Of a stretch of 64,000 nucleotides of DNA, positions 2,482-54,999 are shown one piece after another. The translations under genes and the position numbers were made by a program. Positions within the stretch are counted from its first letter, which is position 1, and every line of letters begins with the position of its first letter. The notes under the pieces are model-generated. The model had not been told where the DNA came from. It saw nothing but the letters and a program-made list of their open reading frames with translations, and made no database searches. The stretch covers positions 4,774,001 to 4,838,000 of the forward strand of contig NC_091477.1 of the NCBI RefSeq assembly GCF_036971445.1. The letters run 5' to 3'. This stretch comes from Narcine bancroftii (taxonomy: Eukaryota).

Positions 2482-4860
2482 ATGGCGTACCCACTGTGGT
2501 TTGCCTTCAATCTGCTTGCATGCGCGTTTCTGACATGTATACCAGATTTAATTACTGGCCAAATTCGTTATTCAATTCACGAGGAATTGGAAGAAGGGGC
2601 ATTTGTCGGGAATATCGCTCAGGATTTGGGACTGAATGTCCGGCAATTGTCCACTCGCAAATTACGCCTGGCCCCTGTCGCCGGAGGACGGTACATGAAG
2701 GTTAGTTTGGATAATGGGCTTTTGTCTATTCGTGAAAGGATCGACCGGGAACATATTTGTGGACAGGCAGTTGTGTGTATTTTACCTTTCGAAACAACTC
2801 TGCAAAATCCTTTGGAGGTTCATCACGGCGAACTGGAGATTCTTGATGTAAATGACAATTCCCCGGTTTTCCGCGACGGCAGCATTTCTTTGAAGATGTC
2901 CGAAGCAATTCCACCAGGAATACGCTTCCGCCTCGAGGGCGCAGAAGATCAGGATATTGGGATAAATACTGTCGCCGGCTACACAATCAGTTCCAGTGAG
3001 TACTTCAGTCTAAAAACGCAGCTCACCGATGACCGTGTTATAAGGGCAGAGTTGGTGTTAGAGAAATCTTTGGACCGAGAGCGGCAATCATCCTTTCAGT
3101 TGTTGCTTACGGCCACTGACGGTGGGATTCCTCAAAGGTCCGGTACGGCTCAGATTCTCATTACAATATTGGACTTCAATGATAATCCACCTATATTCGA
3201 GCATGATGTCTACAAAGGCAGCCTCAGTGAAAACGCACTGCCAGGTACCTCAGTGTTGAAAGTTAATGCAAACGATTTGGACGAGGGGGTGAATGCTGAG
3301 ATAACATATTCTTTCAGTGATCGAACCATGAGACAAATACGTGATATATTAATCATAGACCCAGATACAGGAGAGATTCGGCTAGAAGGACCGCTGGATT
3401 TTGAAGAAGCAAACACCTATTCGCTCGACGTTCAAGCTGTGGACCACGGTTTCCCTGCGATTACAGGATACTCAAAAGTGCTGATCAAGGTAATTGATGT
3501 GAACGACAACGCCCCCGATATAACATTGACATCAACATTTAACAAAATCACGGAAGATGCTCCTCCGGGAACATTCATAACCTTGATCAATGTCATCGAT
3601 CGCGATTCTGGAGAAAATGGTCGAGTTCGGTGTGCAATACCGAAGAACATCCCTTTCAGGCTACAAACATCATCTGACCGTTATAAACTAATTTCTAGTG
3701 AAGCGTTGGACCGTGAGGCGATCTCTGAGTACAAGATTCCTGTTTCAGCCTGGGACCAGGGATCTCCTTCACTGTCAACAAATAAAACCATCCATGTCAC
3801 AATTTCCGATGTAAATGATAATGCCCCACAGTTTACGGAGCCTTCCTACAACATTTATGTGATGGAAAACAACGGCCTTGGTGTTTCTATATTCGCGGTT
3901 ACAGCGTCCGATCCTGATTTGGACCAGAATTCGTATGTTTCATACTCTCTTCTGACCAATCAAATGGGAGACTTGCCAATGTCCAGTTTTATCAGCATTA
4001 ACTCGATGAACGGTACCATTTACGCGCTGCGCTCATTCGACTACGAGAAACTAAAAACCTTCCAGATCCAGGTTCAAGCCCGTGACGCTGGAGTGCCCCC
4101 GCTGAGCAGTCGCGCTGCGGTTAATGTGATAATCCTGGATCAAAATGACAACGCGCCGGTAATTGTTTCACCTTCAGCACCGGGTGGATCAGCAGCAGTG
4201 AATTTCATGCCCCATTTAGCGAGTCAAGGCTACCTGGTGACCAGGGTAATGGCTACAGATGCAGATTCCGGGCAGAACGCACGGCTGTTATATCAGATGC
4301 TCAAATCGACTGATTCTAGCTTGTTCAACGTTGGACGAAATTCCGGTGAAATCAGAACTGCTCGCAATATTTTGCAGTCAGATAGCAGCTCACAGACTTT
4401 GGTGATATTGGTGAAGGACAACGGGCAGCCAAGCCTCTCGAACACGGTTACAATTCACATTACAGCTTTGGAGAACATCACCGAAAAAATAAGCAAAAGT
4501 AGTAAATTAGTGAAGTATCCGGAATACGTTTCCAATCGAAATCTTTATTTGATCGTCATTTTCGGTTGCACGTCCATTGCCTTTCTGTTGATCATCGTTC
4601 TGTTGATTGGCATCAAGTGTAAGCAGGACAGAACTGTCATCCAGGAGTACAATTACCCCAGTTATTGTTACAAAGGCGGAGATTCGCGCGTCACGTTGAA
4701 CCGGGGAGCTGCAATGGAGGAAACTTTGCGCTATCCCGGGACTGGCCAGGTAATCCGCGTGCCAGAATTGAATCAATATTCTGTCTGCCTGTCCCCGGAA
4801 TCAGCGAAAAGTGATTTTCTCTTCTTGAAGCCATGCGACGTTCCCACCTCTCAAGCCTAA
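2482..4860 (+). CDS. Clustered protocadherin 1 (type A), 792 aa, intact single ORF: signal peptide, EC1-EC6, TM, short tail
   Basis: ATG in good Kozak context (acaATGG). QIRYSI..EE..G.FVGNIA.DLGL start of EC1, C-x5-C (CGQAVVC), repeated DxNDN/LDRE/DxD calcium motifs, TM LYLIVIFGCTSIAFLLIIVLLIGI, tail YSVCLSPESAKSDFLFLKP. The ORF-track start at 2413 is a non-ATG extension. Confidence 0.95.
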   Translation: MAYPLWFAFNLLACAFLTCIPDLITGQIRYSIHEELEEGAFVGNIAQDLGLNVRQLSTRKLRLAPVAGGRYMKVSLDNGLLSIRERIDREHICGQAVVCILPFETTLQNPLEVHHGELEILDVNDNSPVFRDGSISLKMSEAIPPGIRFRLEGAEDQDIGINTVAGYTISSSEYFSLKTQLTDDRVIRAELVLEKSLDRERQSSFQLLLTATDGGIPQRSGTAQILITILDFNDNPPIFEHDVYKGSLSENALPGTSVLKVNANDLDEGVNAEITYSFSDRTMRQIRDILIIDPDTGEIRLEGPLDFEEANTYSLDVQAVDHGFPAITGYSKVLIKVIDVNDNAPDITLTSTFNKITEDAPPGTFITLINVIDRDSGENGRVRCAIPKNIPFRLQTSSDRYKLISSEALDREAISEYKIPVSAWDQGSPSLSTNKTIHVTISDVNDNAPQFTEPSYNIYVMENNGLGVSIFAVTASDPDLDQNSYVSYSLLTNQMGDLPMSSFISINSMNGTIYALRSFDYEKLKTFQIQVQARDAGVPPLSSRAAVNVIILDQNDNAPVIVSPSAPGGSAAVNFMPHLASQGYLVTRVMATDADSGQNARLLYQMLKSTDSSLFNVGRNSGEIRTARNILQSDSSSQTLVILVKDNGQPSLSNTVTIHITALENITEKISKSSKLVKYPEYVSNRNLYLIVIFGCTSIAFLLIIVLLIGIKCKQDRTVIQEYNYPSYCYKGGDSRVTLNRGAAMEETLRYPGTGQVIRVPELNQYSVCLSPESAKSDFLFLKPCDVPTSQA

Positions 4861-5038
4861 TGCTAAATTACCATGATGTTCCACATCATTCATTTACCAT
4901 GGTGCCCAGCTTAATTGCAATAATTTCTTTTGTTATCAAGGAATGTTAGTTATTGTAATTGAAGTTTTTAAGAAAGTATCCATAGGCGTAAAACAGTTTA
5001 GTTTTAATTTAAACTTCTGTTAAGTTTTAATGGTCTAA

Positions 5039-5044
5039 AATAAA
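5039..5044 (+). terminator. Candidate polyadenylation signal of gene 1
   Basis: AATAAA 179 nt after the stop; an equivalent signal follows genes 2-6. Confidence 0.6.
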
Positions 5045-5095
5045 AGTGTGAAAAATTAAGAATCCAATTTTTTAAGATTACCATCTGTTAATTTT

Positions 5096-9795: not shown

Positions 9796-9836
<41 letters not shown>

Positions 9837-12004: not shown

Positions 12005-14263
12005 TTTGTCGGGAATATCGCTCAGGATTTGGGACTGAATGTCCGGCAATTGTCCACTCGCAAATTACGCCTGGCCCCTAACGCCGGTGGACGGTACATG
12101 AAGGTTAGTTTGGACAATGGGCTTTTGTCTATTCGTGAAAGAATCGACCGGGAACATATTTGTGGACAGGCAGTTGTGTATATTTTACCTTTCAAAACCA
12201 CACTGGAAAATCCTTTGGAGGTTCATCGCGGCGAACTGGAGATTCTTGATGTAAATGACAATTCCCCGGTTTTCCGCGACTGCAGCTTTTCTTTGAAGAT
12301 GTCCGAAGCAATTACACCTGGAATACGCTCCCGCCTCGAGGGCGCAGAAGATCAGGATATTGGGATAAATACTGTCGCCGGCTACACAATCAGTTGCAGT
12401 GAGTACTTCAGTCTAAAAACGCAGCTCACCGATGACCGTGTTATAAGCGCAGAGTTGGTGTTAGAGAAATCTTTGGACCGAGAGCGGCAATCATCGTTTC
12501 ATTTGTTGCTTACGGCCACTGACGGTGGGATTCCTCAAAGGTCCGGTACCGCTCAGATTCTCATTACAATACTGGACATCAATGATAATCCACCTATATT
12601 CGAGCATGATGTCTACAAAGGCAGCCTCAGTGAAAACGCACTGCCAGGTACCTCAGTGTTGAAAGTTAATGCAAACGATTCGGACGAGGGGGTGAATGCT
12701 GAGATAACATATTCTTTCAGTGATCGAACCATGAGACAAATACGTGATATATTCATCATAGACCCAGATAGAGGAGAGATTCGGCTAGAAGGAAGGCTGG
12801 ATTTTGAAGAAGCAAACACCTATTCGCTCGACGTTCAAGCTGTGGACCACGGTATCCCTGCGATTACAGGATACTCAAAAGTGCAGATCAAGGTAATTGA
12901 TGTGAACGACAACGCCCCCGAGATAACATTGACATCAACATTTAACAAAATCACGGAAGATGCTCCTCCGGGAACATTCATAACCTTGATCAATGTTATC
13001 GATCGCGATTCTGGAGAAAATGGTCGAGTTCGGTGTGAAATACCGAAGAACATCCCTTTCAAGCTTCAAACATCATCTGACCATTATAAACTAATTTCTA
13101 GTGAAGCGTTGGACCGTGAGGCGATCTCTGAGTACAGGATTCCTGTTTCAGCCTGGGACCAGGGATCCCCTTCACTGTCAACAAATAAAACCATTCATGT
13201 CACAATTTCCGATGTAAATGATAACGCCCCACAGTTTACGGAGGCTTCCTACAACATTTATGTGATGGAAAACAACAGCCCTGATGTTTCTATATTCGCG
13301 GTTACAGCGTCCGATCCTGATTTGGACCAGAATTCGTATGTTTCATTCTCTCTTCTGGCCAATCATATGGGAGACTTGCCAGTGTCCAGTTATATCAGCA
13401 TTAACTCGATGAACGGTGTCATTTACCCGCTGCGCCCATTCGACTACGAGAAATTAAAGACCTTCCAGATCCAGGTTCAAGCCCGTGACGCTGGAGTGCC
13501 CCCGCTGAGCAGCAGCGCTGCGGTTAATGTGATAATCCTGGATCAAAATGACAACGCGCCGGTAATTGTTTCACCTTCAGCACCGGGTGGATCAGCAGCA
13601 GTGGATTTCGTGCCCCATTTTGTGAGTCAAGGCTTCCTGGTGACCAGGGTAATGGCTACAGATGCAGATTCCGGGCAGAACGCACGGCTGTCATATCAGA
13701 TGCTCAAATCGACTGATTCTACCTTGTTCAACGTTGGACGAAACTCCGGTGAAATCAGAACTGCTCGCAATATTTTGCAGTCAGATAGTAGCTCACAGAC
13801 TTTGGTGATATTGGTGAAGGACAACGGGCAGCCAAGCCTCTCGAACACGTTTACAATTCACATTACAGCTGTGGAGAACATCACCGAAAAAATAAGCGAA
13901 AGAATTAAATTAGTGAAGAATCCGGAATACGTTTCCAATCGAAATCTTTATTTGATCGTCATTTTCGGTTGCACGTCCATTGCCTTTCTGTTGATCATCG
14001 GTCTGTTGATTGGCATCAAGTGTAAGCAGGACCGAACTGTCATCCAGGAGTACAATTACCCCAGTTATTGTTACAAAGGTGGAGATTCGCGCGTCAGGTT
14101 GAACCGGGGACCTGCAAAGAAGGAAACTTTGTGCTATCCCGGGACTGGCCAGGTAGTCCGCGTGCAAGAATTGAATCAATATTCTGTCTGCCTGTCCCCG
14201 GAATCAGCGAAAAGTGATTTTCTCTTCTTGAAGCCATGCGACGTTCCCACCTCTCAAGCCTAA
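12005..14263 (+). pseudogene. Protocadherin 2 (type B), 5'-truncated: lacks promoter, ATG, signal peptide and start of EC1; remaining frame open
   Basis: Starts at FVGNIAQDLG directly after L1 sequence; no CSE upstream. EC1 C-x5-C second Cys changed to Tyr (CGQAVVY). More than 744 codons still open. Confidence 0.85.
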
Positions 14264-15619
14264 TGCTAAATTACCACGATGTTCCACATCATTCATTTAC
14301 CATGGTGCCCAGCTTAAGTGCAAAAATTTCTTTTGTTATCAAGGAATGTTAGTTATTGCAATTGAAGTTTCTAAGAAAGTATCCACAGGCGTAAAACAGC
14401 TTAATTTTACTTTAAACTTCTGTTCAGTTGTAATGGTCTAAAATAAAAGTGTGAGCAATTTAGAATCCAATTTTTGAAGATTATCATCTGTTAATTTTTG
14501 AAGGAAATTCTAACGCTCCGTCAATTAACGAGGCAATCAACTGGTTTTTATCAGAATGATTATGCAATGAAATTTGATGTGTGGATCGAGTAATGTGTTT
14601 TAATATTAATAATTGAAAATGCGATCAATATAGAAATATGGTTGCATACGTTCCACACGAATGTCAAAATTGAAGATACAAATATAGGATAAAAGGTAGA
14701 TTCCTGAAACTCCAAGTTAAAACTAGAACCTGCATGAAACACTCAAGATGTCCTGCTGCCCTTTGCAGGGGAAAATAACTCGTTCCAACCGTATATCTTC
14801 TCCATCATAGATATCACTCGCCTCCCTTTTTAAAAATTCCATACAAAATATTATGGGTTCTTTTTTCTTCCATCAAACCCTCCCATCCTTCAGCGCGTTC
14901 CCTTCGACCTGTAGGACATGCAATGTGAGTCCATTTAAAAAATGTTCGCTTGCCTCTGCTCAGCAAGTTTTCAGATGAAACGAAGATTGGAGACATTTTC
15001 GACAGCGAATAAAGTCATCAGAACTTGCAGCTGGATCTGGACCAGCTGGAAAAATGTGGTGAAATTGGCAGATGGCATTTCATGCAGAGAAGTTTGAGAT
15101 GTTGCATCTTGGAAGGACAAGCCAAGGTAGGACGCATTCGTTCTGTGTTCTATAGACTCAAAGCTTATTGTAAATTAGAACATTGAACACGACAGCGCAG
15201 TGCAGGCTCTTCGTCCCTTGATCTAGCGCTGACCCATATATTCTTTAAATTATGCACTCTACCCACCCTACCCCATCAACCTCTATTTTACGCTCATCCA
15301 TGTGCGTGTCGTAGAGACTCTAAATGCCCCTAATGTTTCCACGTCTCCCACCGTCCCTCGCAAGGCATTCCAGGCACCCATAAATATCTGCGGAATACAT
15401 GTACGCCTGATATTTCCCCAAAACCTCCCTCCCTTCACGTTTTGCATACGTCTTCTGCTGTTTGTTATTCCTGCCCTGGGAAACAGGTGGTGGCTGTCCA
15501 CCGTATCATTCATACAAAGGTCTATCATGTGTCCTCCCATCCTTATATTCTACAAAGATAAAAGCCCTTGTTCCATTAGCCTTGCTTAATAAGACATGTT
15601 TTCCAATCCAAGCAACATA

Positions 15620-23128: not shown

Positions 23129-25507
23129 ATGGCGTACCCACTGTGGTTTGCCTTCAATCTGCTTGCATGCGCGTTTCTGACATGTATACCAGATTTAATT
23201 ACTGGCCAAATTCGTTATTCAATTCACGAGGAATTGGAAGAAGGGGCATTTGTAGGGAATATCGCTCAGGATTTGGGACTGAATGTCCGGCAATTGTCCA
23301 CTCGCAAATTACGCCTGGCCCCTGTCGCCGGTGGACGGTACATGAAGGTTAGTTTGGACAATGGGCTTTTGTCTATTCGTGAAAGAATCGACCGGGAACA
23401 TATTTGTGGACAGGCAGTTGTGTGTATTTTACCTTTCGAAACCACTCTGGAAAATCCTTTGGAGGTTCATCGCGGCGAACTGGAGATTCTTGATGTAAAT
23501 GACAATTCCCCGGTTTTCCGCGACGGCAGCATTTCTTTGAAGATGTCCGAAGCAATTACACCTGGAATACGCTTCCGCCTCGAGGGCGCAGAAGATCAGG
23601 ATATTGGGATAAATACTGTCGCCGGCTACACAATCAGTTCCAGTGAGTACTTCAGTCTAAAAACGCAGCTCACCGATGACCGTGTTATAAGTGCAGAGTT
23701 GGTATTAGAGAGATATTTGGATCGAGAGCGGCAATCATCGTTTCAGTTGTTGCTTACGGCCACTGACGGTGGGATTCCTCAAAGGTCCGGTACGGCTCAG
23801 ATTCTCATTACAATACTGGACATCAATGATAATCCACCTATATTCGAGCATGATGTCTACAAAGGCAGCCTCAGTGAAAACGCACTGCCAGGTACCTCAG
23901 TGTTGAAAGTTAATGCAAACGATTTGGACGAGGGGGTGAATGCTGAGATAACGTATTCTTTCAGTGATCGAACCATGAGACAAATACGTGATATATTAAT
24001 CATAGACCCAGATACAGGAGAGATTCGGCTAGAAGGACCGCTGGATTTTGAAGAAGCAAACACCTATTCGCTCGACGTTCAAGCTGTGGACCACGGTTTC
24101 CCTGCGATTACAGGATACTCAAAAGTGCTGATCAAGGTAATTGATGTGAACGACAACGCCCCCGATATAACATTGACATCAACATTTAACAAAATCACGG
24201 AAGATGCTCCTCCAGGAACATTCATAACCTTGATCAATGTCATCGATCGCGATTCTGGAGAAAATGGTCGAGTTCGGTGTGCAATACCGAAGAACATCCC
24301 TTTCAGGCTACAAACATCATCTGACCATTATAAACTAATTTCTAGTGAAGCGTTGGACCGTGAGGCGATCTCTGAGTACAAGATTCCTGTTTCAGCCTGG
24401 GACCAGGGATCTCCTTCACTGTCAACAAATAAAACCATCCATGTCACAATTTCCGATGTAAATGATAATGCCCCACAGTTTACGGAGCCTTCCTACAACA
24501 TTTATGTGATGGAAAACAACAGCCCTGGTGTTTCTATATTCGCGGTTACAGCGTCCGATCCTGATTTGGACCAGAATTCGTATGTTTCATATTCTCTTCT
24601 GACCAATCAAATGGGAGACTTGCCAGTGTCCAGTTATATCAGCATTAACTCGATGAACGGTACCATTTACGCGCTGCGCCCATTTGACTACGAGAAATTA
24701 AAGACCTTCCAGATCCAGGTTCAAGCCCGTGACGCTGGAGTGCCCCCGCTGAGCAGCAGCGCTGCGGTTAATGTAATAATCCTGGATCAAAATGACAACG
24801 CGCCGGTAATTGTTTCACCTTCAGCACCGGGTGGATCAGCAGCAGTGGATTTCATGCCCCATTTAGCGAGTCAAGGCTACCTGGTGACCAGGGTAATGGC
24901 TACAGATGCAGATTCCGGGCAGAACGCACGGCTGTCATATCAGATGCTCAAATCGACTGATTCTACCTTGTTCAACGTTGGACGAAACTCCGGTGAAATC
25001 AGAACGGCTCGCAATATTTTGCAGTCAGATAGCAGCTCACAGACTTTGGTGATATTGGTGAAGGACAACGGGCAGCCAAGCCTCTCGAACACGGTTACAA
25101 TTCACATTACAGCTTTGGAGAACATCACCGAAAAAATAAGCGAAAGTAGTAAATTAGTGAAGAATCCGGAATACGTTTCCAATCGAAATCTTTATTTGAT
25201 CGTCATTTTCGGTTGCACGTCCATTGCCTTTCTGTTGATCATCGTTCTGTTGATTGGCATCAAGTGTAAGCAGGACCGAACTGTCATCCAGGAGTACAAT
25301 TACCCCAGTTATTGTTACAAAGGTGGAGATTCGCGCGTCACGTTGAACCGGGGAGCTGCAATGGAGGAAACTTTGCGCTATCCCGGGACTGGCCAGGTAA
25401 TCCGCGTGCCAGAAATGAATCAATATTCTGTCTGCCTGTCCCCGGAATCAGCGAAAAGTGATTTTCTCTTCTTGAAGCCATGCGACGTTCCCACCTCTCA
25501 AGCCTAA
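23129..25507 (+). CDS. Clustered protocadherin 3 (type A), 792 aa, intact
   Basis: Same architecture as gene 1; about 20 amino-acid differences by manual comparison; AATAAA at 25686-25691. Confidence 0.95.
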   Translation: MAYPLWFAFNLLACAFLTCIPDLITGQIRYSIHEELEEGAFVGNIAQDLGLNVRQLSTRKLRLAPVAGGRYMKVSLDNGLLSIRERIDREHICGQAVVCILPFETTLENPLEVHRGELEILDVNDNSPVFRDGSISLKMSEAITPGIRFRLEGAEDQDIGINTVAGYTISSSEYFSLKTQLTDDRVISAELVLERYLDRERQSSFQLLLTATDGGIPQRSGTAQILITILDINDNPPIFEHDVYKGSLSENALPGTSVLKVNANDLDEGVNAEITYSFSDRTMRQIRDILIIDPDTGEIRLEGPLDFEEANTYSLDVQAVDHGFPAITGYSKVLIKVIDVNDNAPDITLTSTFNKITEDAPPGTFITLINVIDRDSGENGRVRCAIPKNIPFRLQTSSDHYKLISSEALDREAISEYKIPVSAWDQGSPSLSTNKTIHVTISDVNDNAPQFTEPSYNIYVMENNSPGVSIFAVTASDPDLDQNSYVSYSLLTNQMGDLPVSSYISINSMNGTIYALRPFDYEKLKTFQIQVQARDAGVPPLSSSAAVNVIILDQNDNAPVIVSPSAPGGSAAVDFMPHLASQGYLVTRVMATDADSGQNARLSYQMLKSTDSTLFNVGRNSGEIRTARNILQSDSSSQTLVILVKDNGQPSLSNTVTIHITALENITEKISESSKLVKNPEYVSNRNLYLIVIFGCTSIAFLLIIVLLIGIKCKQDRTVIQEYNYPSYCYKGGDSRVTLNRGAAMEETLRYPGTGQVIRVPEMNQYSVCLSPESAKSDFLFLKPCDVPTSQA

Positions 25508-26859
25508 TGCTAAATTACCATGATGTTCCACATCATTCATTTGCCATAATGCCCAGCTTAATTGCAATAATTTCTTTTGTTATCAAGGAATGTTAGTTAT
25601 TGCAATTGAAGTTTTTAAGAAAGTATCCACAGGCGTAAAATAGTTTCCTTCTAATTTAAACTTCCGTTCAGTTGTAATGGTCTAAAATAAAAGTGTGAGA
25701 AATTTAGAATCCAATATTTTAAGATTATCATCTGTTAATTTTGAATGAAATTCTAACGCTCCGTCAATTAAAGACGCAATCAACTGGTTTTTATCGGAAT
25801 GATTATGTAATGAAATTTGATGTGTGGATCGAGTTATGTGTTTTAACATTAATAATTGAAAATGCGATCAATATAGAAATATGGTTTCATACGATCCACA
25901 CGAATGTCAAAATTGAAGACACAAATATAGGATCAAAGGTAGATTCCTGAAACTCTAACTTAAAACTAGAACCTGCAGGAAACACTCAAGATGTCCTTCT
26001 ACCCTTTGCAGGTGAAAATAACTCGTTCCAACAGTATGCCTTCTCCATCATAGATATCACTCGCCTCCCTTTTTAAAAATTCCATAGAAAAATTTATGGA
26101 TTCTCTTTTCTTCCATCAATCCTTCCCATCCTTCAGCGCTTTCCCTTCGACCTGTAGGAAATGCAATGTGAGTCCTTTTAAAACAAAAATATTTGCTTGC
26201 CTCTACTCAGCAAGTTTTCAGATGAAACTTTGTCGACAGCGAATAAAGTTTTCAGAACTTGCAGAGGGATCAGGACCAGCTGAAAGTATGGGGTGAAATT
26301 GGCAGATGGCATTTCATGCAGAGAAGTTTGAGATGTTGCTTCTTGGAAGGACAAACCAAGATAGGAAACATTCGTTCTGTGTTCTATAGACGCAAAGCTT
26401 ATTGTAAAGTACAACATAGAACACGACAGCTTAGTACAGACTCTTCGGCCCTCGATCTAGCACTAACCCATATATTCTTCAAATTATGCACTCAAACCAC
26501 CCTACCCCATCAACCTCTAATTTACTCTCATTCATGTGCGTGTTGTAGAGTCTCTAAATGCCCCTAATTTTTCCGCCTCTCCCACCGTCCCTCGCAAGGC
26601 ATTCCAGGCACCCATAAATATCTGCAGAATACACGTAGCCCTGATATTTCCCCTGAACCTCCCTCTTTTCACGTTTTGCCTACGTCTTCTGCTGTTTGTT
26701 ATTCCTGCTCTGGGAAATAGGTGGTGGCTGCCCATTGTATCTAAGCCTCTCATTCATACAAATGTCTACCATGTGTCCTCCCATCCTTGTATTCTACAGA
26801 GATAAAATTCCTTGTTTGATTAGCCTTGCTTCATAAGACATGTTTTCCAATCCAAGCCA

Positions 26860-32782: not shown

Positions 32783-35700
32783 ATGGCGTACCCACTGTGG
32801 TTTGCCTTCAATCTGCTTGCATGCGCGTTTCTGACATGTATACCAGATTTAATTACTGGCCAAATTCGTTATTCAATTCACGAGGAATTGGAAGAAGGGG
32901 CATTTGTCGGGAATATCGCTCAGGATTTGGGACTGAATGTCCGGCAATTGTCCACTCGCAAATTACGCCTGGCCCCTGTCGCCGGTGGACGGTACATGAA
33001 GGTTAGTTTGGATAATGGGCTTTTGTCTATTCGTGAAAGAATCGACCGGGAACATATTTGTGGACAGGCAGTTGTGTGTATTTTACCTTTCGAAACCACA
33101 CTGGAAAATCCCTTGGAGGTTCATCGCGGCGAACTGGAGATTCTTGATGTAAATGACAATTCCCCGGTTTTCCGCGACGGCAGCTTTTCTTTGAAGATGT
33201 CCGAAGCAATTACACCTGGAATACGCTTCCGCCTCGAGGGCGCAGAAGATCAGGATATTGGGATAAATACTGTCGCCGGCGACACAATCAATTCCAGTGA
33301 GTCTTCTTTTCTTCTTTGGCTTGGCTTCGCGGACGAAGATTTATGGAAGGGGTAAAAAGTCCACGTCAACTGCAGGCTCGTTTGTGGCTGACCAGTCCGA
33401 TGCGGGACAGGCAGACACGATTGCAGCGGTTGCAAGGGAAAATTGGTTGGTTGGGGTTGGGTGTTGGGTTTTTCCTCCTTTGCCTTTTGTCAGTGAGGTG
33501 GGCTCTGCGGTCTTCTTCAAAGGAGGCTGCTGCCCGCCAAACTGTGAGGCGCCAAGATGCACGGTTTGAGGCGTTATCAGCCCACTGGCGGTGGTCAATG
33601 TGGCAGGCACCAAGAGATTTCTTTAGGCAGTCCTTGTACCTTTTCTTTGGTGCACCTCTGTCACGGTGGCCAGTGGAGAGCTCGCCATATAATACGATCT
33701 TGGGAAGGCGATGGTCCTCCATTCTGGAGACGTGACCCATCCAGCGCAGCTGGATCTTCAGCAGCGTGGACTCGATGCTGTCGACCTCTGCCATCTCGAG
33801 TACCTCGACGTTAGGGGTGTGAGCGCTCCAATGGATGTTGAGGATGGAGCGGAGACAACGCTGGTGGAAGCGTTCTAGGAGCCGTAGGTGGTGCCGGTAG
33901 AGGACCCATGATTCGGAGCCGAACAGGAGTGTGGGTATGACAACGGCTCTGTATACGCTTATCTTTGTGAGGTTTTTCAGTTGGTTGTTTTTCCAGACTC
34001 TTTTGTGTAGTCTTCCAAAGGCGCTATTTGCCTTGGCGAGTCTGTTGTCTATCTCATTGTCGATCCTTGCATCTGATGAAATGGTGCAGCCGAGATAGGT
34101 AAACTGGTTGACCGTTTTGAGTTTTGTGTGCCCGATGGAGATGTGGGGGGGCTGGTAGTCATGGTGGGGAGCTGGCTGATGGAGGACCTCAGTTTTCTTC
34201 AGGCTGACTTCCAGGCCAAACATTTTGGCAGTTTCCGCAAAGCAGGACGTCAAGCGCTGAAGAGCTGGCTCTGAATGGGCAACTAAAGCGGCATCATCTG
34301 CAAAGAGTAGTTCACGGACAAGTTTCTCTTGTGTCTTGGTGTGAGCTTGTAGGCGCCTCAGATTGAAGAGACTGCCATCCGTGCGGTACCGGATGTAAAC
34401 AGCGTCTTCATTGTTGGGGTCTTTCATGGCTTGGTTCAGCATCATGCTGAAGAAGATTGAAAAGAGGGTTGGTGCGAGAACACAGCCTTGCTTCACGCCA
34501 TTGTTAATGGAGAAGGGTTCAGAGAGCTCATTGCTGTATCTGACCCGACCTTGTTGGTTTTCGTGCAGTTGGATAATCATGTTGAGGAACTTTGGGGGAC
34601 ATCCGATGCGCTCTAGTATTTGCCAAAGCCCTTTCCTGCTCACGGTGTCGAAGGCTTTGGTGAGGTCAACAAAGGTAATGTAGAGTCCTTTGTTTTGTTC
34701 TCTGCACTTTTCTTGGAGCTGTCTGAGGGCAAAGACCATGTCAGTGGTTCCTCTGTTTGCGCGAAAGCCGCACTGTGATTCTGGGAGAATATTCTCAGCG
34801 ACACTAGGTATTATTCTATTTAGTAGAATCCTAGCGAAGATTTTGCCTGCAATGGAGAGCAACGTGATTCCCCTGTAGTTTGAGCAGTCTGATTTCTCGC
34901 CTTTGTTTTTGTACAGGGTGATGATGGTGGCATCACGAAGATCCTGAGGCAGTTTACCTTGGTCCCAACAAAGCTTGAAAAACTCATGCAGTTTGGCATG
35001 CAGAGTTTTGCCGCCAGCCTTCCAGACTTCTGGGGGGATTCCATCCATACCTGCTGCTTTGCCACTTTTCAGTTGTTCGATTGCCTTATATGTCTCATCC
35101 AGGGTGGGAACCTCATCCAGCTCTAGCCTTAGGGGCTGTTGAGGGAGCTGGAGCAGGGCGGAATCTTGGACTGAGCGGTTGGTACTGAAAAGAGATTGGA
35201 AGTGTTCTGACCATCGGTTGAGGATGGAGATCTTGTCGCTGAGGAGGACTTTGCCGTCTGAGCTGCGCAGCGGGCTTTGGACTTGGGGTGAGGGGCCGTA
35301 CACAGCCTTTAGAGCCTCGTAGAAACCCCTGAAGTCGCCAATGTCCGCGCTGAGCTGTGTTCGTTTGGCGAGGCTAGTCCACCACTCATTTTGGATCTCC
35401 CGGAGTTTGCGCTGAAGATGGCTGCATGCGCGACGGAAGGCTTGTTTCTTCTCTGGACAGGACGGCTTTGTAAGGTGAGCCTGGTGGGCAGCTCGCTTCT
35501 TTGCCAGCAGCTCCTGGATTTCAGTCTAAAAACGCAGCTCAACGATGACCGTGTTATAAGTGCAGAGTTGGTGTTAGAGAAATCTTTGGACCGAGAGCGG
35601 CAATCATCGTTTCATTTGTTGCTTACGGCCACTGACGGTGGGATTCCTCAAAGGTCCGGTACCGCTCAGATTCTCATTACAAGACTGGACATCAATGATA

Positions 35701-37375
35701 ATCCACCTATATTCGAGCATGATGCCTACAAAGGCAGCCTCAGTGAAAACGCACTGCCAGGTACCTCAGTGTTGAAAGTTAATGCAAACGATTTGGACGA
35801 GGGGGTGAATGCTGAGATAACATATTCTTTCAGTGATCGTACCCTGAGACGAATACGTGATATATTCATCATAGACCCAGATACAGGAGAGATTCGGCTC
35901 GAAGGACGGCTGGATTTTTGAAGAAGCAAACACCTATTCGCTCGATGTTCAAGCTGTGGACCACGGTATCCCTGCGATTACAGGATACTCAAAAGTGCTG
36001 ATCAAGGTAATTGATGTGAACGACAACGCCCCCGAGATAACATTGACATCAACATTTAACAAAATCACGGAAGATGCTCCTCCAGGAACATTCATAACCT
36101 TGATCAATGTTATCGATCGCGATTCTGGAGAAAATGGTCGAGTTCGGTGTGAAACACCGAAGAACATCCCTTTCAAGCTTCAAACATCATCTGACAAATT
36201 TAAACTAATTTCTAGTGAAGCGTTGGACCGTGAGGCGATCTCTGAGTACAAGATTCCTGTTTCAGCCTGGGAGAAGGGATCCCCTTCACTGTCAACAAAT
36301 AAAACCATCCATGTCACAATTTCCGATGTAAATGATAACGCCCCACAGTTTACGGAGCCTTCCTACAACATTTATGTGATAGAAAACAACGGCCCTGGTG
36401 TTTCTATATTCGCGGTTACAGCGTTCGATCCTGATTTGGACCAGAATTCCTATGTTTCATACTCTCTTCTGGCCAATCATATGGGAGACTTGCCAGTGTC
36501 CAGTTATATCAGCATTAACTCGATGAACGGTACCATTTACGCGCTGCGCCCATTCGATTACGAGAAATTAAAGACCTTCCAGATCCAGGTTCAAGCCCGT
36601 GACGCCTGTGTGCCCCCGCTGAGCAGCAGCGCTGCGGTAAATGTGATCATCCTGGATCAAAATGACAACGCGCCGGTAATTGTTTCACCTTCACCATCGG
36701 GTGGATGAGAAGCAGTGGAGATTGTGCCCCATTTAGCGAGTCAATGCTACCTGGTGACCAGGGTAATGGCTACAGATGCAGATTCCGGGCAGAACGCACG
36801 GCTGTCATATCAGATGCTCAAATCGTCTGATTCTAGCTTGTTCAACGTTGGACGAAACTCCGGTGAAATCAGAACTGCTCGCAATATTTTGCAGTCAGAT
36901 AGCAGCTCACAGACTTTGGTGATATTGGTGATGGACAACGGGCAGCCAAGCCTCTCAAACACGGTTACAATTCACATTACAGCTGTGGAGAACATCACCG
37001 AAAAAATAAGGGAAAGTAGTAAATTAGTGAAGAATCCGGAATACGTTACCAATCGAAATCTTTATTTGATCGTCATTTTCGGTTGCACGTCCATTGCCTT
37101 TCTGTTGATCATCGTTCTGTTGATTGGCATCGTGTAAGCAGGACAGAACTGTCATCCAGGAGTACAATTACCCCAGTTATTGTTACAAAGGCGGAGATTC
37201 GCGCGTCACGTTGAACCGGGGAGCTGCAATGGAGGAAACTTTGCTCTATCCCGGGACTGGCCAGGTAATCCGCGTGCCAGAATTGAATCAATATTCTGTC
37301 TGCCTGTCCCCAGAATCAGCGAAAAGTGACTTTCTCTTCTTGAAGCCATGCGACGTTCCCACCTCTAAAGCCTAA
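32783..37375 (+). pseudogene. Protocadherin 4 (type B) pseudogene
   Basis: RTE insertion in EC2 (33303-35519), +1 T frameshift at ~35915-35919, TCA>TGA nonsense at 36706-36708, 2-bp deletion after the TM at ~37131. Confidence 0.93.
33303..35519 (-). mobile_element. Young RTE-clade LINE, 5'-truncated, RT reading frame uninterrupted
   Basis: Open frame from 35519 to 33366 (~717 codons): NYRGITLL, QCGFR, FVDLTKAFD, GVKQGCVLAP, LLFADD, FTYLG, C-terminal C-x2-C..H zinc finger; GAA-type short-repeat tail. Confidence 0.95.
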
Positions 37376-38089
37376 TTCTCAATTACCATGATGTTCCACA
37401 TCATTCATTTATCATGATGCCCAGCTTAATTGCAATAATTTCTTTTGTTATCAAGGAATGTTAGTTATTGCAATTGAAGTTTTTAATAAAGTATCCACAG
37501 GCGTAAAATAGTTTCGCTCTAATTTAAACTTCTGTTCAGTTGTAATGGTCTAAAATAAAAGTGTGAGAAATTTAGAATCCAATATTTTAAGATTATCATC
37601 TGTTAATTTTGAATGAAATTCTAACGCTCCGTCAATTAACGAGGCATTCAACTGGTTGTTATCGGAATGATTATGCCATGAAATTTGATATCTGGATCGA
37701 GTTATGTGTTTTAATATTAATAATTGAAAATGCGATCAATATAGAAATATGGTTGCATACGTTCCACACGAATGTTAAAATTGAGGGCACAAATATGGGA
37801 TAAAAGGTAGAATCCTGAAACTTCAATTTACAGCTAGAACCTGCAGGAAAAATTCAAGATGTCCTGATGCCCATTGCAGGGGAAAATAACTCGTTCCATG
37901 AGTATATCTTCTCCATCACAAATATTACTCGCGTCCGTTTCTAAAAATTCTAAAGGACAATTTATTGATTTTTTTTTCTTTTTTTCCATCAACCTCTCCT
38001 CATCCTTCCTTGCTTCTGCTCAGAGACATAAATATCTTTCAATGTAAACCATGGTATGCGTGCAGTTATTACAATGTATTTTACGGTCA

Positions 38090-42362: not shown

Positions 42363-42470
42363 CAGCTTTAAGAACTGAGCCTGTCGTTGTTGAAAAGGAC
42401 TGGTTGTGTCGCTGTCGACCAATGGGAAGCTCAGCCTCACAGATGGATCCATTGCCCCTCCCACATCGCG
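42363..42470 (+). promoter_or_regulatory. Pcdh promoter/CSE of gene 5
   Basis: CTTTAAGAA at 42366, GTGTCGCTGTCGACCAATGG at 42406-42425, GGATCCATT at 42445, C-rich box. Confidence 0.85.
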
Positions 42471-42669
42471 GAATAAAGTCACCGGAGTCGACGAGAAAGG
42501 CGAGCAGTGCTTGAGATGAGTTGTGTGATTAAGCTGAGAAAATCAACATTCTCGTCTTTGCAGATACTCCGTTCGGAAAATATATTTCTACGTTCAATTT
42601 GTGATAAGCGTCTTTTCGGACGAATGGAGTAGAGGCCTGCAGTGAAAGAAAAACATTGAATGCGGAAAA

Positions 42670-45048
42670 ATGGCGTACCCACCGAGATTTACCTTCGGTG
42701 CAATTGCTTTCATGTATCTCTTGTATGGTTCAGACCTAGCTTCCGGGCAAGTGCATTATTCAGTTTTTGAGGAACTGGATGAAGGGGCATTTGTTGGGAA
42801 TATCGCTCAGGATTTAGGCTTGAATATACGGCAATTATCAGCTCGCAAACTACGACTGACCGCTGACGATGGAGGACGGTACATGAAGGTTAGTTTGGAC
42901 GATGGGCTGTTGTGTATTCATGAAAGAATCGACCGGGAACATATTTGTGGACAAGCAGCTTCATGTGCAATATCTTTTGAAATAATACTAGAGTACCCTT
43001 TGGAGGTGTACCGCGGGGAAGTGGAAATTCTTGATATAAATGATAATTCACCCATGTTCCGGGACAGTAAGATTGCTTTACAGATGTCCGAAGTAATTGC
43101 ACCTGGGACACGTTTCCCTCTCAAGAGGGCGCAAGATCCAGACATTGGAATAAATACAATTGCTGATTACGCCATCAGTTTCAGCGAAAATTTCAGCGTA
43201 AAATCACACAGAACCGATGATGGGATTGTAACTGCCGAGTTGATTTTAGATAAACATTTGGATCGAGAACTGCAGCCATCATTTCAGCTGATTTTGACGG
43301 CGACTGACGGTGGGGTCCCTCCGAGATCAGGCACAGCTCATATCCTCATTACAGTACTGGACAATAACGATAACCCACCAGTCTTTGATCAAGAGGTTTA
43401 CAGAACGAGTTTGAGTGAAAACGGACCTTTGGGAACCTTGGTGATGAACGTCAAAGCAACCGATTTAGACGAAGGGTTGAATGCTGAGCTCACATATTCT
43501 TTCAGTGATCTTGCCTCGTCAAGAGTGCGTGAACTGTTCATTTTGGACCGCCAGACTGGGGAGATACGTACTAAAGGACCGCTAGATTTTGAGGAAGCGA
43601 GCAGTTATTCACTCGACGTTCAGGCTGTGGACCACGGGTCCCCTGCAATTTCAGGACACGCCAAAGTATTGATCAAGGTAATTGATACTAATGACAACTC
43701 GCCCGATATAAAACTGATATCTACTTCCATCAGGCTTCCAGAGAATGCTCTGCCGGGAACTTTGATAACATTGTTCAATGTCATTGATCACGATTCTGGA
43801 GAAAATGGAGAAGTGCAATGTGATATCCCAAAGAACATCCCATTTAGGCTTCAGTCGTCTTCGAAGAATCATTATAAATTGTTCACCAGTGCACCTTTGG
43901 ACCGTGAATCTGTTCCCGAGTATAAAATATCTCTTGCCGCCTGGGATTTGGGGTCGCCTTCACTCTCAAGTAATAGAACCATCCAGATTATTATTTCAGA
44001 TGTGAACGATAACACGCCACGGTTTGCTGAATCATCCTTTAACATATACGTGACGGAGAATAACACACCCGGTACTTCTATCTTCGCAGTAACTGCAACA
44101 GACCTTGATGAGGATCAGAATTCCCTTGTTTCATATTCTTTTTTGGAGAACTTTATCCAAGAGTTCCCAGTGTCCGCTTACCTCAGCATTAACTCAATGA
44201 ACGGTACCATTTACGCGCTACGTTCGTTTGACTATGAGGCTACGAAAACCTTTCGGATCTATGTTGAAGCCCGTGACGCAGGAGTGCCCCGTTTGAGCAG
44301 TACTGCCTCGGTCAACGTGATCGTTCTGGATCAAAATGACAACGCTCCTGTAATTCTTTCACATTCAACAGGAAGGGGACCAGCAACTGTTGAGATCGTG
44401 CCTCAGTCAGCAGGACAAGGGTACGTGATCACGAAGATAAAAGCAACTGATTCGGATTCTGGGCAGAACGCACGGCTCTCCTATCAAATGCTGAAATCTA
44501 CCGATCCCAGTTTGTTTGATGTTCGGCCGAACTCCGGAGAAATCCGAATGACCAGAACCGTTCTGGAGTCGGATGCCACCACACATTCCCTTGTGGTCCT
44601 CGTGAAAGACAATGGGCAACCGAGCCTCTCCAGTACAGTTACAATTCCCATTTCGATATCAGAGAACATCACTGACAGTCGTCACTTGACAGCGAATCCC
44701 GAACCAATCTCTGAGCAAGATCTTTACTTGATGGTCCTTTTTGGTTGCACATCTGTTCTCTTTCTTGTGATCATAATTCTGCTCATTGGTGTAAAATGCG
44801 CACAGGACCGAAGTACCATTCAAGGAGGATATGCTTCTCCAACTTGTTGCTACAAACCTGAACATTCCGCAGATACCTATGATCGAAGATTTGCAATGGA
44901 GGAAACATTGCGGTATTCTGCGTCTGGACGGATGGTGCGTGTGCCAGAAGAGCCTCATTACTCGGTCTGTCTGTCTCCAGAATCAGCGAAGACTGACTTT
45001 CTCTTTTTGAAACCACGCGTCGTCCCCACAGCTCAAGCGCAATGCTAA
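42670..45048 (+). CDS. Clustered protocadherin 5, 792 aa, intact, divergent from genes 1-4
   Basis: Signal peptide, six EC repeats, CGQAASC, TM, tail YSVCLSPESAKTDFLFLKP..AQAQC-stop; AATAAA at 45218-45223. Confidence 0.95.
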   Translation: MAYPPRFTFGAIAFMYLLYGSDLASGQVHYSVFEELDEGAFVGNIAQDLGLNIRQLSARKLRLTADDGGRYMKVSLDDGLLCIHERIDREHICGQAASCAISFEIILEYPLEVYRGEVEILDINDNSPMFRDSKIALQMSEVIAPGTRFPLKRAQDPDIGINTIADYAISFSENFSVKSHRTDDGIVTAELILDKHLDRELQPSFQLILTATDGGVPPRSGTAHILITVLDNNDNPPVFDQEVYRTSLSENGPLGTLVMNVKATDLDEGLNAELTYSFSDLASSRVRELFILDRQTGEIRTKGPLDFEEASSYSLDVQAVDHGSPAISGHAKVLIKVIDTNDNSPDIKLISTSIRLPENALPGTLITLFNVIDHDSGENGEVQCDIPKNIPFRLQSSSKNHYKLFTSAPLDRESVPEYKISLAAWDLGSPSLSSNRTIQIIISDVNDNTPRFAESSFNIYVTENNTPGTSIFAVTATDLDEDQNSLVSYSFLENFIQEFPVSAYLSINSMNGTIYALRSFDYEATKTFRIYVEARDAGVPRLSSTASVNVIVLDQNDNAPVILSHSTGRGPATVEIVPQSAGQGYVITKIKATDSDSGQNARLSYQMLKSTDPSLFDVRPNSGEIRMTRTVLESDATTHSLVVLVKDNGQPSLSSTVTIPISISENITDSRHLTANPEPISEQDLYLMVLFGCTSVLFLVIIILLIGVKCAQDRSTIQGGYASPTCCYKPEHSADTYDRRFAMEETLRYSASGRMVRVPEEPHYSVCLSPESAKTDFLFLKPRVVPTAQAQC

Positions 45049-46115
45049 AATGGATTATGATTTCCCAAATCACAGTTATTGCCAGTCTTCCACCCTTCTC
45101 CCAGAACTCAGAATATAATTCATTGTGCGTAAAGTCCAGACAGATATATCCCCCTTGTTTATGTTTCTTTTTTTTTGTTTGCACATGAAAATGTGCGTTA
45201 ATTGTGCTATTTACAAAAATAAAGGTTTCAGTAACTGGTAAAAAGCAGCTTAAAGTGGGGTTTATTTTGACGACTAGTTGCCGATCACCAGAATCAATCT
45301 AAACAGTGCTTCCATACAGCTTTACAAACAATTAAAGCACATGCCGTTGGAGATCCCGTGAATTCAATTTGTCTCAATTGTGTCTGGACCTAGATTCTGC
45401 ATCGGTATCCAGCCAAACCTATTCAGTTATAAAGCAAGCGAAATATGGTATTAAAGGTACCCATTTGAAACTTAATACTGATCAATTCACCGACCTATTC
45501 GAATCATTATTACATGACCTTAAACGAATATTTTGCAATCACTAACAGCACGAGTTATGTAAAATATTCGACACAAAAGCAGACCAATAGGTATTTGTTG
45601 ATACTCCACAGGACTGGGGAGCATACTAAATGAAAATGGGAAAAATGAAACTTCTGGAAATATTTATGGTTAAAATGTTGGAAAACATATTAGGTCAAAA
45701 GCAGCTGCACAAGTAGGAATAAAGCCCGACATTGCCTGATTTTATATGGTGCGTAATCAATGACAACGGCAGAACGGGATGCGCATGCCCTGTACATGAT
45801 TGTGCTGAGAGTATAAATTGAATAAAACATTTAGATTACTGTTGAAGACAAACGGTTTATAACTTTGGTTGAAGGCCGAATGGTTCAAGATCCGATGGTA
45901 CATATTTATTGAAAAATAAATTTGAAGCTAACAAGTATTTGGAAACTTCGAGTTTCAATGCCGGAAAAAGGAATCGCATCTGACTGCAAGGTGAGATTTT
46001 GTGCTCGTTTAAACCAACTGTACCAAAATTATGTCGCGTGCACCAAATTGACAGTGAACCCAGTAGTGCTGAGATCTCTCTCTCTCTCTCTCTCTCCGCC
46101 TCGCTCTGTTCCTGT

Positions 46116-46279
46116 NNNNNNNNNNNNNNNNNNNNNNNNNNNNNNNNNNNNNNNNNNNNNNNNNNNNNNNNNNNNNNNNNNNNNNNNNNNNNNNNNNNNN
46201 NNNNNNNNNNNNNNNNNNNNNNNNNNNNNNNNNNNNNNNNNNNNNNNNNNNNNNNNNNNNNNNNNNNNNNNNNNNNNNN
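46116..46279. other. Assembly gap next to (CT)n
   Basis: N run. Confidence 0.95.
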
Positions 46280-50200: not shown

Positions 50201-51302
50201 ATGGAACACTGCAAAGAAAGCACACCATTGCGGCGTCGATGTGCATGTTCGATAGAGAATACTTTCAGGTGGTTTAACAGAAATGGGAAATTGGACAAAC
50301 GAAGCAGATCAATTCCACCCACACTCCCTACCGTCGGGCGAACATGTACTAAGTGGCTTCATTTCTGTAGTTGTAAGACTGACATGACTTAAACAATTCA
50401 GCTCAGGGCATTCGTGATGCCATAACGACTGAAATTTCCAGTTGTAATTAAATACTGAAAAAAAATCTGCATTTTCTACATGAATAGAGCAGCCAATTCC
50501 TAAACGGTGAGCATAACGTATCCCCCAATTCTAATTTTTGTGGCTCTATCCCAAGCGTTCTCACCTATGGCTTAGATGCTCTTTGCTTAGTAAGGAGATA
50601 AAGAAAACACACACAGAAATCCTGGAGAAACTCAGCAATGCCATAATGTAGCAAACGTTTATCAAGGGATTTCTTAAGGTAGGATGTGAGTGGAAAAAGA
50701 GCTGAGAACCATTTCCTTATCCTAACATACCCCTCTTATTTTTGTTTTTAGGTGAGTAGTGTAATGAATCATCGTATTTCCAACATTACATTTGAAAATT
50801 CCCTCCTGTCAGTTACTGTATCAAGGAAGCATGTTATAAATGTTTTCTCGCCATCTTCCATTAAATTTCCTGGCGCCAGGTCATGTATTCAGAACAGAAT
50901 TAATTACTCATTAAATGTATTAACTAGTCATTCTATAGTTTGATTACCTTTCTTTGTGTCCTTAATCTTGAAATTGTCCAGTGGCCAGCCTGCTTTTATT
51001 TCTCTGCTTTTAATAGGCTTTTACAAAATGTTCTTTTGGCTGAAGATTAGAACAGAATCAAGGACTTCGCATACACCCATTAGCAGTCTCCAGCACCAGG
51101 GTGTACGTTCCACCCTCCCCCCACAACATTGTCACCAGTGAACAGGTAGACTGTGTAGTATATCACTTTTATTGATAAGGCCTTTTCCATGGCTAACCAA
51201 CGCCGACAAGAATGTTGTCCTCAGAGGGTCGTCAGCCTAATCAGAGAATGTAGTATTTTAGTTCCGCATTTGACTATCTTTACGTTGGTCGTTAGCGACC
51301 TC

Positions 51303-51494
51303 AGTGACAAAAGACAAAGGAGGAAAAACCCAACACCCAACTCCATCCAACCAATTTTCCCCTGCAACCGCTGCAACCGTGTCTGCCTGTCCCGCATCGG
51401 ACTTGTCAGCCACAATCGAGCCTGCAGCTGACGAGGACTTTTACCCCCTCCATAAATCTTCGTCCGCGAAGCCAAGCCAAAGAAGAAAGAAAGA
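51303..51494 (+). mobile_element. RTE-clade LINE 3' fragment just upstream of promoter 6
   Basis: Very similar to the 3' end of the RTE in gene 4; 9-bp TSD AGCGACCTC at 51294-51302 and 51495-51503. Confidence 0.92.
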
Positions 51495-51901: not shown

Positions 51902-54282
51902 ATGGAGAATTCGGCGATCAACAGCGCCATTGCTGTCAAAACCTTTGGCTTCCTGATTCTGGTATGTTCACCGGGTCTGATTTTGGGGCAAATTCGGTAT
52001 TCCATTAGCGAGGAATTGGAGAAAGGGGCTTTTGTTGGCAATATCGCTCAGGATTTAGGTTTGACTGTAGCGCAATTGTCAGCTCGTCAATTTCGGCTGA
52101 CCTCAGAAGACGGTCGAGAGTATATGATGGTTAATTTCGAGAACGGAATTTTGACTGTGCGTGAAAGAATCGACAGGGACCATTTCTGTGGTCAAGCAAA
52201 TATGTGTACAATTCCTTTCAAAATAATAATGAAGAATCCTTCGGCACTGCATCATGGAGAACTAGAGATTCTTGACGTTAATGACAACTCCCCCACTCTC
52301 CCCGAGAGCACGGTTGCCGTAGAGATTGCCGAAGCGATTGCACCAGGTGTTCGCTTCCCCCTCGAAAATGCGGAAGATCCGGACGTTGGAACAAACCCAG
52401 TCACCGCTTATACGATTAGTTCCAACGATTATTTTAGTTTAAGAACACAAGTTGAGGGAGATGTTTTAAGTACCGAGTTGCCACTCGAGAAACCTTTAGA
52501 TAGAGAGCAACGGTCATCATTCCGACTGATCCTGACGGCGACTGATGCAGGAACCCCTCCGCGATCGGGATCTGCCGAGATTATCATTAAAGTTGTGGAC
52601 ATGAATGATCAGAAGGTTTACAGGAGCATCTTACGCGAAAACGTGCTGCCAGGTACCTTGGTGGTGAAAATCAAAGCAAATGATTTGGACGAGGGGCCAA
52701 ACGCTGAGTTAACATATTCGTTCAACAAACAAACTTCACTAAGAATTCGCGAGTTGTTCAGTTTGGACCCACAATTTGGACAGGTGATATACATATAGAA
52801 GGAGTTTTGGACTTTGAAGAGGCCAAAAGTTATTCTCTAAATGTCCAGGCTGTTGATCATGGTTCACCCGCAATCATAGGCCGATCCAAAGTGTTAATCA
52901 ACGTAATTGACATAAACGACAATGCACCCGAGATAAAAGTATCATCAAAGACCTTCAATGTTCCGGAAGATGCCCCGCCGGGAACAATCATATCTTCCAT
53001 CAATGTTATCGATCGAGATTCTGGGGAAAACGGCCAAGTGCAGTGCAAGGTATCAAAGACGAACTCATTTAGGCTTGAAATGTGGTCGGAAAATCATTAT
53101 GAATTGATTACGAGTGAACCAATGGACCGCGAATCGGACCCCGAGTATGAAATAGCTTTTATAGCCTGGGATTTGGGGCCCGCTTCACTCTCAAGTAATA
53201 CAACCATCCAGGTTATAATTTCCGATGTAAATGATAACCCACCACAGTTTGTAGAAACTTTATACAACATATATGTTATGGAAAACAAAGCTCCGGGCGC
53301 TTCTCTGATGGCACTAACTGCTTCCGATCCTGATCTGGACCAGAATTCCTATATTTCGTACTCTTTGCTGAACAATGTTGGCTACGTTTTTCCAGTGTCC
53401 ACTTACCTCAGCATTAATTCAATGAACGGCACCATTTACGCACTGCGCTCTTTTGACTATGAGGAATTCAAAAGTTTCCAGATCCATGTTCAAGCCCGTG
53501 ATGCTGGCCTTACCCCACTGAGCAGCAGTGTTGCTGTGAACGTGATCATCTTGGATCAAAATGACAACGCTCCCATAATTGTTTCACCTTCAGGACAAAG
53601 TGGATCAGAAGCGGTGGTGCTCCTACCCCAGTCGTCAGCTCAGGGGTACTTAGTCGTCAAGATTTTGGCTACTGATGCAGATTCTGGTCAGAATGCACGG
53701 CTCTTTTATCATATGGTGAAATCTACCGATCCCAGCTTATTCAATGTTGGTCAAAACACCGGAGAACTAACAACATCGAGGGTGATGATGCAGAGAGATA
53801 CCACTACACACACTCTCGTTATCTTGGTGAAGGACAATGGGCAGCCGAGCCTTTCCAGCATACCTACAATTCACATCTCAGTGTTGGAGAACATAACTAA
53901 AACAACCACATCAAGCAGGATTTCCGTGGCGAGTTCCAAACATTTCCATGATTTAAATTTTTATTTAATCGTCATTTTCACATGCACTTCCATTCTCTTT
54001 CTTTTGATGATTATTCTGCTAATTGGCATCAAATGAAAGCAGCATAGAAATATTACCCAACAGTATCATTCTCCGCACTGTTCTTATAAACATGGGAATT
54101 CAAACTATACGTCCAACCGAAGACCAGCCATGGAGGAAACATTACGCTATCCTGGGACTGGTCGTCGAGCTCGCGTGTCAGAAGCGCACCATTACTCAGT
54201 TGGTCTTTCTCCAGAATCAGCGAAGAGTGATTTTCTATTTTTGAAGCCATGCACCGTTTCCACGCCGCAGGCCCAATGCTAA
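51902..54282 (+). pseudogene. Protocadherin 6 pseudogene
   Basis: In-frame 6-codon deletion at the EC2-EC3 linker (~52609), frameshift at ~52785 (stop 52798), Cys codon changed to TGA after the TM (54034-54036); ancestral end ..PQAQC-TAA at 54282; AATAAA at 54457-54462. Confidence 0.9.
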
Positions 54283-54999
54283 ATTATAGTGATCTCTTTA
54301 CATCACAGGGTAGCCGATGATGCCGGTCATCCTGTTCATCCAGCAAAGTGAATTCTTGCAAGTCAAATATTTGTTTCCGAGTGTTCCTTTTTTGCACGTT
54401 TTTGTTTTGCCATTGTTATGGGTGATGTAACCAGCTGGTTTGTTTTGATCGACGAAAATAAAAGTCCAGTCAATGGGATCTAAACGTTTAACACTGACAA
54501 ATGTTACTTTTGGAAGTAATAATGAGGTTTGTCACTGAACGGTTTGCTTTTGCAGCTTCCTTTCGGTCGACAAACATGAATATAGAGAACTGATAGACGA
54601 TTTGTTATTAATATCCGAAAATGGGTTGACATTACATTGAAAGAAATTGTATAAGGTTATTAGTACTTGTAGTTTATTGTAGGGATCGAGTATACTTTCT
54701 TTAAATTTAATTCCTAAATAGTTATAATGTGCCTGCGTTAAAGGAATGCAATTCCACTAACTGTAAAGGTCATTTTAGTGAAGACTTCCAGATGAGTGCA
54801 ATAAGGTTGGCTCTATTGCATCAAATTAATATGATTAGTAAAGTTAAACATTCGAATGTTTCCTTAAACCATCGGACTCCTACAAGGATGTTCAGTGCAA
54901 TAGGTCCTTGTCTTTGCAAGAAGAATTGTAAGAAAGGCATACAATCTTAGAACGTGGCCATGCGTGAAACGTGGATGCAGGAGAAGCAGGACTGGCAGC

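Follow-up and report, generated by a model that had tools for sequence, protein, structure and literature searches.

Do the tandem protocadherin exons at this locus end on their own, or do they splice to shared constant exons like ordinary variable exons, and is their design that of Pcdh-beta or one reached separately? The window (the whole 64-kb stretch of Narcine bancroftii DNA that was analyzed) carries 7 tandem protocadherin units by sequence analysis, all on the + strand. Each coding unit is one ~2.4-kb exon with six EC repeats, a TM segment and a short cytoplasmic segment, and a domain search returned PF08266, five PF00028 and PF16492 for the window proteins. A CGCT-containing promoter block stands ahead of each exon in the array and is missing only in the truncated gene 2. 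The units were recognized as clustered protocadherins, genes for nerve-cell adhesion, by this exon form and by these blocks. The window is very probably part of the chondrichthyan Pcdh-epsilon subcluster as found in a ray, whose genes have their own promoter-like blocks and stops, likely their own AATAAA polyadenylation, and likely no use of shared constant exons.

Feature coordinates are collected in Table 1. Six tandem genes were counted in the initial annotation; the six exons with their claimed ends were recovered, but no more than 3/7 copies are intact (genes 1, 3 and 5); the seventh is an additional, decayed copy behind gene 6. Genes 1-4 are 92–97% identical in units of ~10 kb, and genes 5 and 6 are ~60–65% identical to them, which gives three lineages (genes 1-4, gene 5, gene 6). 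The array is turning over by duplication and decay. Gene 2 begins abruptly at codon 41, its promoter and signal peptide deleted or mis-assembled, and its residual frame is 721 aa from an internal ATG. The LINE in gene 4 bears a reverse transcriptase and has an open frame of 560 aa, and further, shorter stretches of this family are scattered through the spacers at 19752-20692, 30330-30713 and 51298-51494, some of them upstream of promoters. In the gene 7 region (59290-61631) the promoter block is recognizable, and a TA repeat with AT-rich, repeat-like DNA has taken the place of the 3' end. Runs of N occur in spacers (16451-17328, adjoining a TC microsatellite; 27538-27679; 46116-46279; 48590-48772), and assembly errors are possible in such near-identical tandem units.

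Table 1. Features of the Pcdh-epsilon array in the 64-kb window. Genes 1-6 end with their stop codon; AATAAA distances are in nt from the stop.
Feature	Position	Strand	Description
Gene 1 promoter-like block	2142..2481	+	CGCT, CCAAT, GGATCC, CCCGCCC; common to genes 3-6, decayed in gene 7
Gene 1	2482..4860	+	Intact single-exon Pcdh-epsilon, 792 aa; signal peptide, EC1-6, TM, ~80-aa tail
AATAAA behind gene 1	5039..5044	+	+179
Gene 2	12005..14263	+	5'-truncated copy without promoter block and codons 1-40
AATAAA behind gene 2	14442..14447	+	+179
Gene 3	23129..25507	+	Intact, 792 aa, 97.5% identity to gene 1
AATAAA behind gene 3	25686..25691	+	+179
Gene 4	32783..37375	+	Broken: LINE insertion, frameshifts, internal stop
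LINE with reverse transcriptase inside gene 4	33305..35519 (approximate limits)	-	PF00078, E 5e-36
AATAAA behind gene 4	37554..37559	+	+179; another at 37485 (+110)
Gene 5	42670..45048	+	Intact, 792 aa, 65% identity to gene 1, end QAQC∗
AATAAA behind gene 5	45218..45223	+	+170
Gene 6	51902..54282	+	Broken: frameshift near 52780, stop just behind TM segment; end QAQC∗
AATAAA behind gene 6	54457..54462	+	+175
Gene 7	about 59640..61631	+	Heavily decayed copy, ends at DFL motif; absent from the initial annotation

For the elephant shark, the available text of Jiang et al. (2009, PMC2764143) gives delta, epsilon, mu and nu subclusters, a four-subcluster picture repeated in the accessible parts of PMC4978886 and PMC7811963. 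A homologue search with the last 153 residues of gene 5 returned 176 proteins of 435–1386 aa, and tail counts were taken from the 120 of these 176 matches that were listed. Among those 120, all but 2 from the window itself are named chondrichthyan proteins (118), which bears out the cartilaginous fish origin first proposed from the letters. The nearest tail homologues among the matches listed belong to sawfish and skates, so that the DNA comes from a ray. Elephant shark protocadherin epsilon8 and epsilon9 are listed as well, and epsilon4, 6, 7 and 10-13 were added by cluster look-ups. Trees were built on EC1-TM units using FastTree (71 rows) and IQ-TREE under LG+G4 and C20 (44 of the 71 rows, near-redundant rows dropped). 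The rows were a manual selection out of 424 units, with the trees left unrooted; beta was represented by a single beta-like row (turtle P0328), with neither mammalian nor coelacanth beta, and delta was absent. Window genes 1 and 5 were placed in one clade with the named elephant shark epsilon4, 6 and 9 (100/100 under LG+G4, SH-aLRT 100 under C20), and the 71-row FastTree agrees on this clade. By their place in these trees, the window genes are members of the already known Pcdh-epsilon group and form no new subcluster; the suggestion that the subcluster might be undescribed is therefore not supported, epsilon being a name already given to elephant shark deposits and used in published work. The automatic NCBI names (protocadherin-10-like, gamma-C5-like) were discarded, as the tree puts these rows with epsilon. 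Best matches in a PDB search were Pcdh10 and gamma-B4, partly by length, and are uninformative on orthology.

The elephant shark epsilon proteins (ABV59322-ABV59331; epsilon4, 6-13; Yu et al., 2008) resemble the window genes in their size (~800 aa), in the tail motif SPES.KS[DE]FL[FY]LK and in being deposited without a constant region. The CGCT promoter element is likewise common to the window genes and to the elephant shark cluster as described in the available text of PMC2926608. The window genes differ in belonging to a shark and ray subgroup that ends 17 residues from the motif, often in QAQC, whereas elephant shark epsilon runs at least 30 residues from it. Recent copies of 92–97% identity with 4/7 broken also set the array apart from the elephant shark, for which low gene conversion is reported in the accessible part of PMC2764143. 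A literature search that covered few subscription papers and no supplements turned up nothing published on the 3' ends of epsilon or on this subcluster in sharks or rays.

All six stops are TAA, 15 residues from the D of DFLFLKP in genes 1-4 and 17 residues in genes 5 and 6, and both the equivalent stop in three lineages and the AATAAA distances noted at the outset were measured again with the same result. Genes 1-4 read QA∗C∗, with a CAA>TAA change two codons ahead of the QAQC∗ end of genes 5 and 6, through which their last two tail residues are lost; counted from the equivalent stop, the AATAAA spacing is 173, 170 and 175 nt in the three lineages. The 3' flanks had been taken to be otherwise dissimilar, but they are diverged homologues (g1-g6 z = 4.5 and g5-g6 z = 4.4, 0/300 shuffles as high; g1-g5 z = 1.2, 39/300). 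The AATAAA spacing was therefore inherited from one duplicated unit and is not a convergence. With 64 AATAAA in the 44,279 non-coding bases of the window, the chance of equal spacing is ~1e-4 (~2e-4 for two further lineages within the same 10-nt window; 5e-5, or 1/20,000, for simulated flanks), figures that overstate the independence of the lineages because the flanks are homologous. At the exon ends, no donor-like GT (≥6/9 consensus positions) common to the three lineages was found, in line with the initial annotation. The candidate donor CAG|GTAATC (4750) occurs in genes 1, 3 and 4 only. A GT in the Val codon that lies 9-10 residues inside the tail is common to the window genes and was rejected as a donor, as it matches <6/9 consensus positions and the residue is unconserved in relatives.

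Contigs of four runs (X1-X4), whose RNA status was guessed, were compared with 36000-46100; X1-X3 are from one study, and X4 is from a second study of another organism. Against gene 5, X1-X3 had 0 differences in 10 pieces among the matches listed, and X4 gave one 2433-nt contig with 2428 letters on 42812-45240. The gene 5 stop was bridged by wholly aligned contigs in 3/4 putative RNA runs (X1, X2 and X4; two studies), the X3 piece having too few letters ahead of the stop to count as bridging. A gene 4-type stop was bridged by X1 and X3 contigs, and the candidate donor CAG|GTAATC at 37265 (gene 4) was crossed unbroken by paralogue contigs in 4/4 putative RNA runs. Joints and loose ends, among those listed, fell on repeats at 38000-41100 only and nowhere on exons. 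Rare spliced forms of epsilon exons are possible, because contigs drop rare forms and repeats obscure loose ends. Cover behind the AATAAA sites was little or none (45436-46100 zero in 4/4 runs, 37685-38021 zero in 3/4); two unique intergenic bins likewise had little or none, and missing cover was not counted as evidence.

Poly(A) cleavage normally takes place 10-30 nt behind AATAAA; the contigs of the four runs showed no poly(A) tail. Contigs end near the gene 5 hexamer at 45223 (X3, 0 nt after) and 45240 (X4, 17 nt after), a weak hint, as contigs cannot show transcript ends; X1 and X3 contigs also end at 37563, 4 nt past the gene 4 hexamer and closer than the normal cleavage spacing. The AATAAA match could also be a neutral relic of tandem duplication with the real 3' ends farther downstream, which would fit the homology of the flanks, the further AATAAA/ATTAAA downstream and the hexamer retained in the broken genes 2, 4 and 6. 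However, the AAAATAAA block is invariant in 6/6 flanks while the remainder aligns at ~50%, and the gene 5 contigs from two studies stop at or shortly past the hexamer, so that a neutral relic is considered unlikely. Polyadenylation behind the conserved AATAAA is the likely course, and epsilon is therefore likely made without shared constant exons.

Whether a constant region is attached after all was examined in the named deposits and in the homologues. In elephant shark deposits, a constant region is present in 0/9 named epsilon (796–827 aa) and in 16/16 named nu proteins (977–991 aa). Yu et al. 2008 reportedly described epsilon as being without constant exons, which agrees with the deposits of that study. 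The PF15974 constant tail was not found in the window proteins by domain search, and contigs run colinear over the stop; no constant exon was found in the 64-kb window (best E 0.22), and the constant-region start motif was found in 0/120 of the listed tail homologues (of 176), lengths up to 1386 aa being searched. The accessible part of Jiang et al. (2009, PMC2764143) shows a constant-exon tree of alpha, gamma, delta, mu and nu, with no epsilon. Absence from automated models is weak evidence alone, because 40/59 nu-type rows are also without constants. The unspliced nu models are, however, of scattered length, 59–165 residues past the motif, and ~25/40 (by eye) show E-V-R/S at the constant-region junction, unlike the epsilon-type tail, which is conserved right up to the stop. 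Among the 120 listed tail homologues, 116 end ≤30 residues from the motif and 56 at exactly 17 residues, with conserved ends (near the end Q in 48/56, Q in 43/56, C in 36/56). Since so many stop at 17 residues with conserved ends and nu read-through lengths are scattered, the sequence comparison favours the epsilon end as a true, selected C-terminus. The terminal Cys in these 36/56 proteins of the 17-residue class (..SQAQC) corresponds to the gene 5 end at 45040-45048.

The opposite reading is that these are ordinary variable exons, mostly spliced to downstream mu/nu constant exons, and that the stops and AATAAA are intronic read-through. Such exons would have to sit past the end of the window, nu-type models annotated without constants are common, minor junctions are invisible in contigs, and an alpha isoform without the constant part, the O-isoform, is known (available text of PMC7339444). 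Set against this are the lack of a donor common to the three lineages, the best donor crossed unbroken in every putative RNA run, the listed homologues, none of which is modelled with a constant region, and a tail that is conserved to the stop where unspliced nu is scattered. Splicing to mu/nu constants as the main fate of the exons is accordingly regarded as highly improbable. The claim of a constant-exon-independent subcluster with its own, likely, 3' ends is supported.

With an epsilon gene that likely ends on its own, the remaining question is how it relates to Pcdh-beta. The beta genes of lobe-finned fishes and tetrapods are single-exon and, like epsilon, have a variable cytoplasmic segment only (accessible parts of PMC7811963 and PMC2764143); the window genes are likewise single-exon without constant exons, which bears on a works-like claim only. 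In the trees, epsilon is not sister to the one beta-like row but to nu plus a constant-bearing group labelled mu (100/99 under LG+G4, 99 under C20). The mu label was given by exclusion, and no sequence named mu was recovered; a search for longer proteins gave no named mu proteins, only fused gene models, which were used as sources of tree rows. No beta was found in a search of 50% representatives, which multi-repeat cadherins dominated. Nu and mu-type proteins are thus the nearest ectodomain relatives of epsilon under both models, but they splice to constant exons (16/16 named nu) and have other variable tails; the window genes showed neither the tail motif nor the splice junction nor the constant region of the nu/mu type. 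In AU tests, grouping of epsilon with the beta-like P0328 was rejected (p = 0.0013, a single turtle beta-1-like row), and so were trees that joined the gamma/beta-like group to epsilon (p = 0.0027) or to nu (p = 0.0026). P0328 is a turtle beta-1-like model whose annotation splices it to a gamma constant region; a genuine join of this kind would be atypical of beta exons.

Two origins had been left open for the single-exon design, an ancient beta-type relative or an independent origin, and the second is favoured because epsilon with the beta-like row was rejected and epsilon groups with nu and the mu-type. Going by these trees, the design was likely reached independently of beta. The converse makes epsilon the orthologue of Pcdh-beta in chondrichthyans, with a single origin of the constant-less design in the jawed-vertebrate ancestor; it would account for the same gene design and for a tail motif like that of turtle P0328 (YEVCL...EFKFLRP). 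Gene conversion can pull genes of one lineage together in trees, and lineage-wide conversion could hide ectodomain orthology. This orthology is nevertheless very unlikely in view of the AU results and of the grouping with nu and the mu-type. A similar tail motif in gamma-C5 (P0189) is further evidence against it, the motif hence not being beta-specific, and according to the available text of Jiang et al. (2009, PMC2764143), bony vertebrates lack orthologues of epsilon, mu and nu, and the elephant shark lacks beta. Under the independent origin preferred here, it is conceivable, though rather doubtful, that epsilon, mu and nu were not three ancestral subclusters which bony vertebrates lost but duplicates that arose within cartilaginous fishes. 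In that lineage epsilon would then have dropped its constant exons and arrived at the beta design a second time, by convergence, with a conserved poly(A) signal and a C-terminal tail under selection (..SQAQC) fixing it. Of the results here, only the epsilon+mu+nu clade reaches past the cited literature, and it questions the seven-subcluster ancestor.

In the proposed mechanism, each intact epsilon gene would yield a single-exon transcript from a promoter of its own, promoter choice per gene presumably running through the CGCT block, and the transcript would be cleaved at the textbook distance of 10-30 nt behind AATAAA. The product would be a 792-aa receptor with the variable cytoplasmic segment only (PF16492). 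By analogy, the epsilon protein may work like Pcdh-beta, adding homophilic recognition identities, and may pair in cis with constant-bearing mu, nu or delta isoforms. In gamma, trafficking is directed by the variable cytoplasmic segment without the constant part (available text of PMC3216661).

A subcluster described in one chimaera is now extended to rays and, via database homologues, to many sharks, and exact candidate 3' ends are given for epsilon genes. An origin of epsilon, mu and nu internal to the lineage, if true, would cut the published model of seven ancestral subclusters. Should broader sampling bear out the trees, tail-less clustered protocadherins evolved twice in vertebrates, and two origins, if true, would suggest that isoforms with recognition diversity but no shared signalling tail are recurrently useful.
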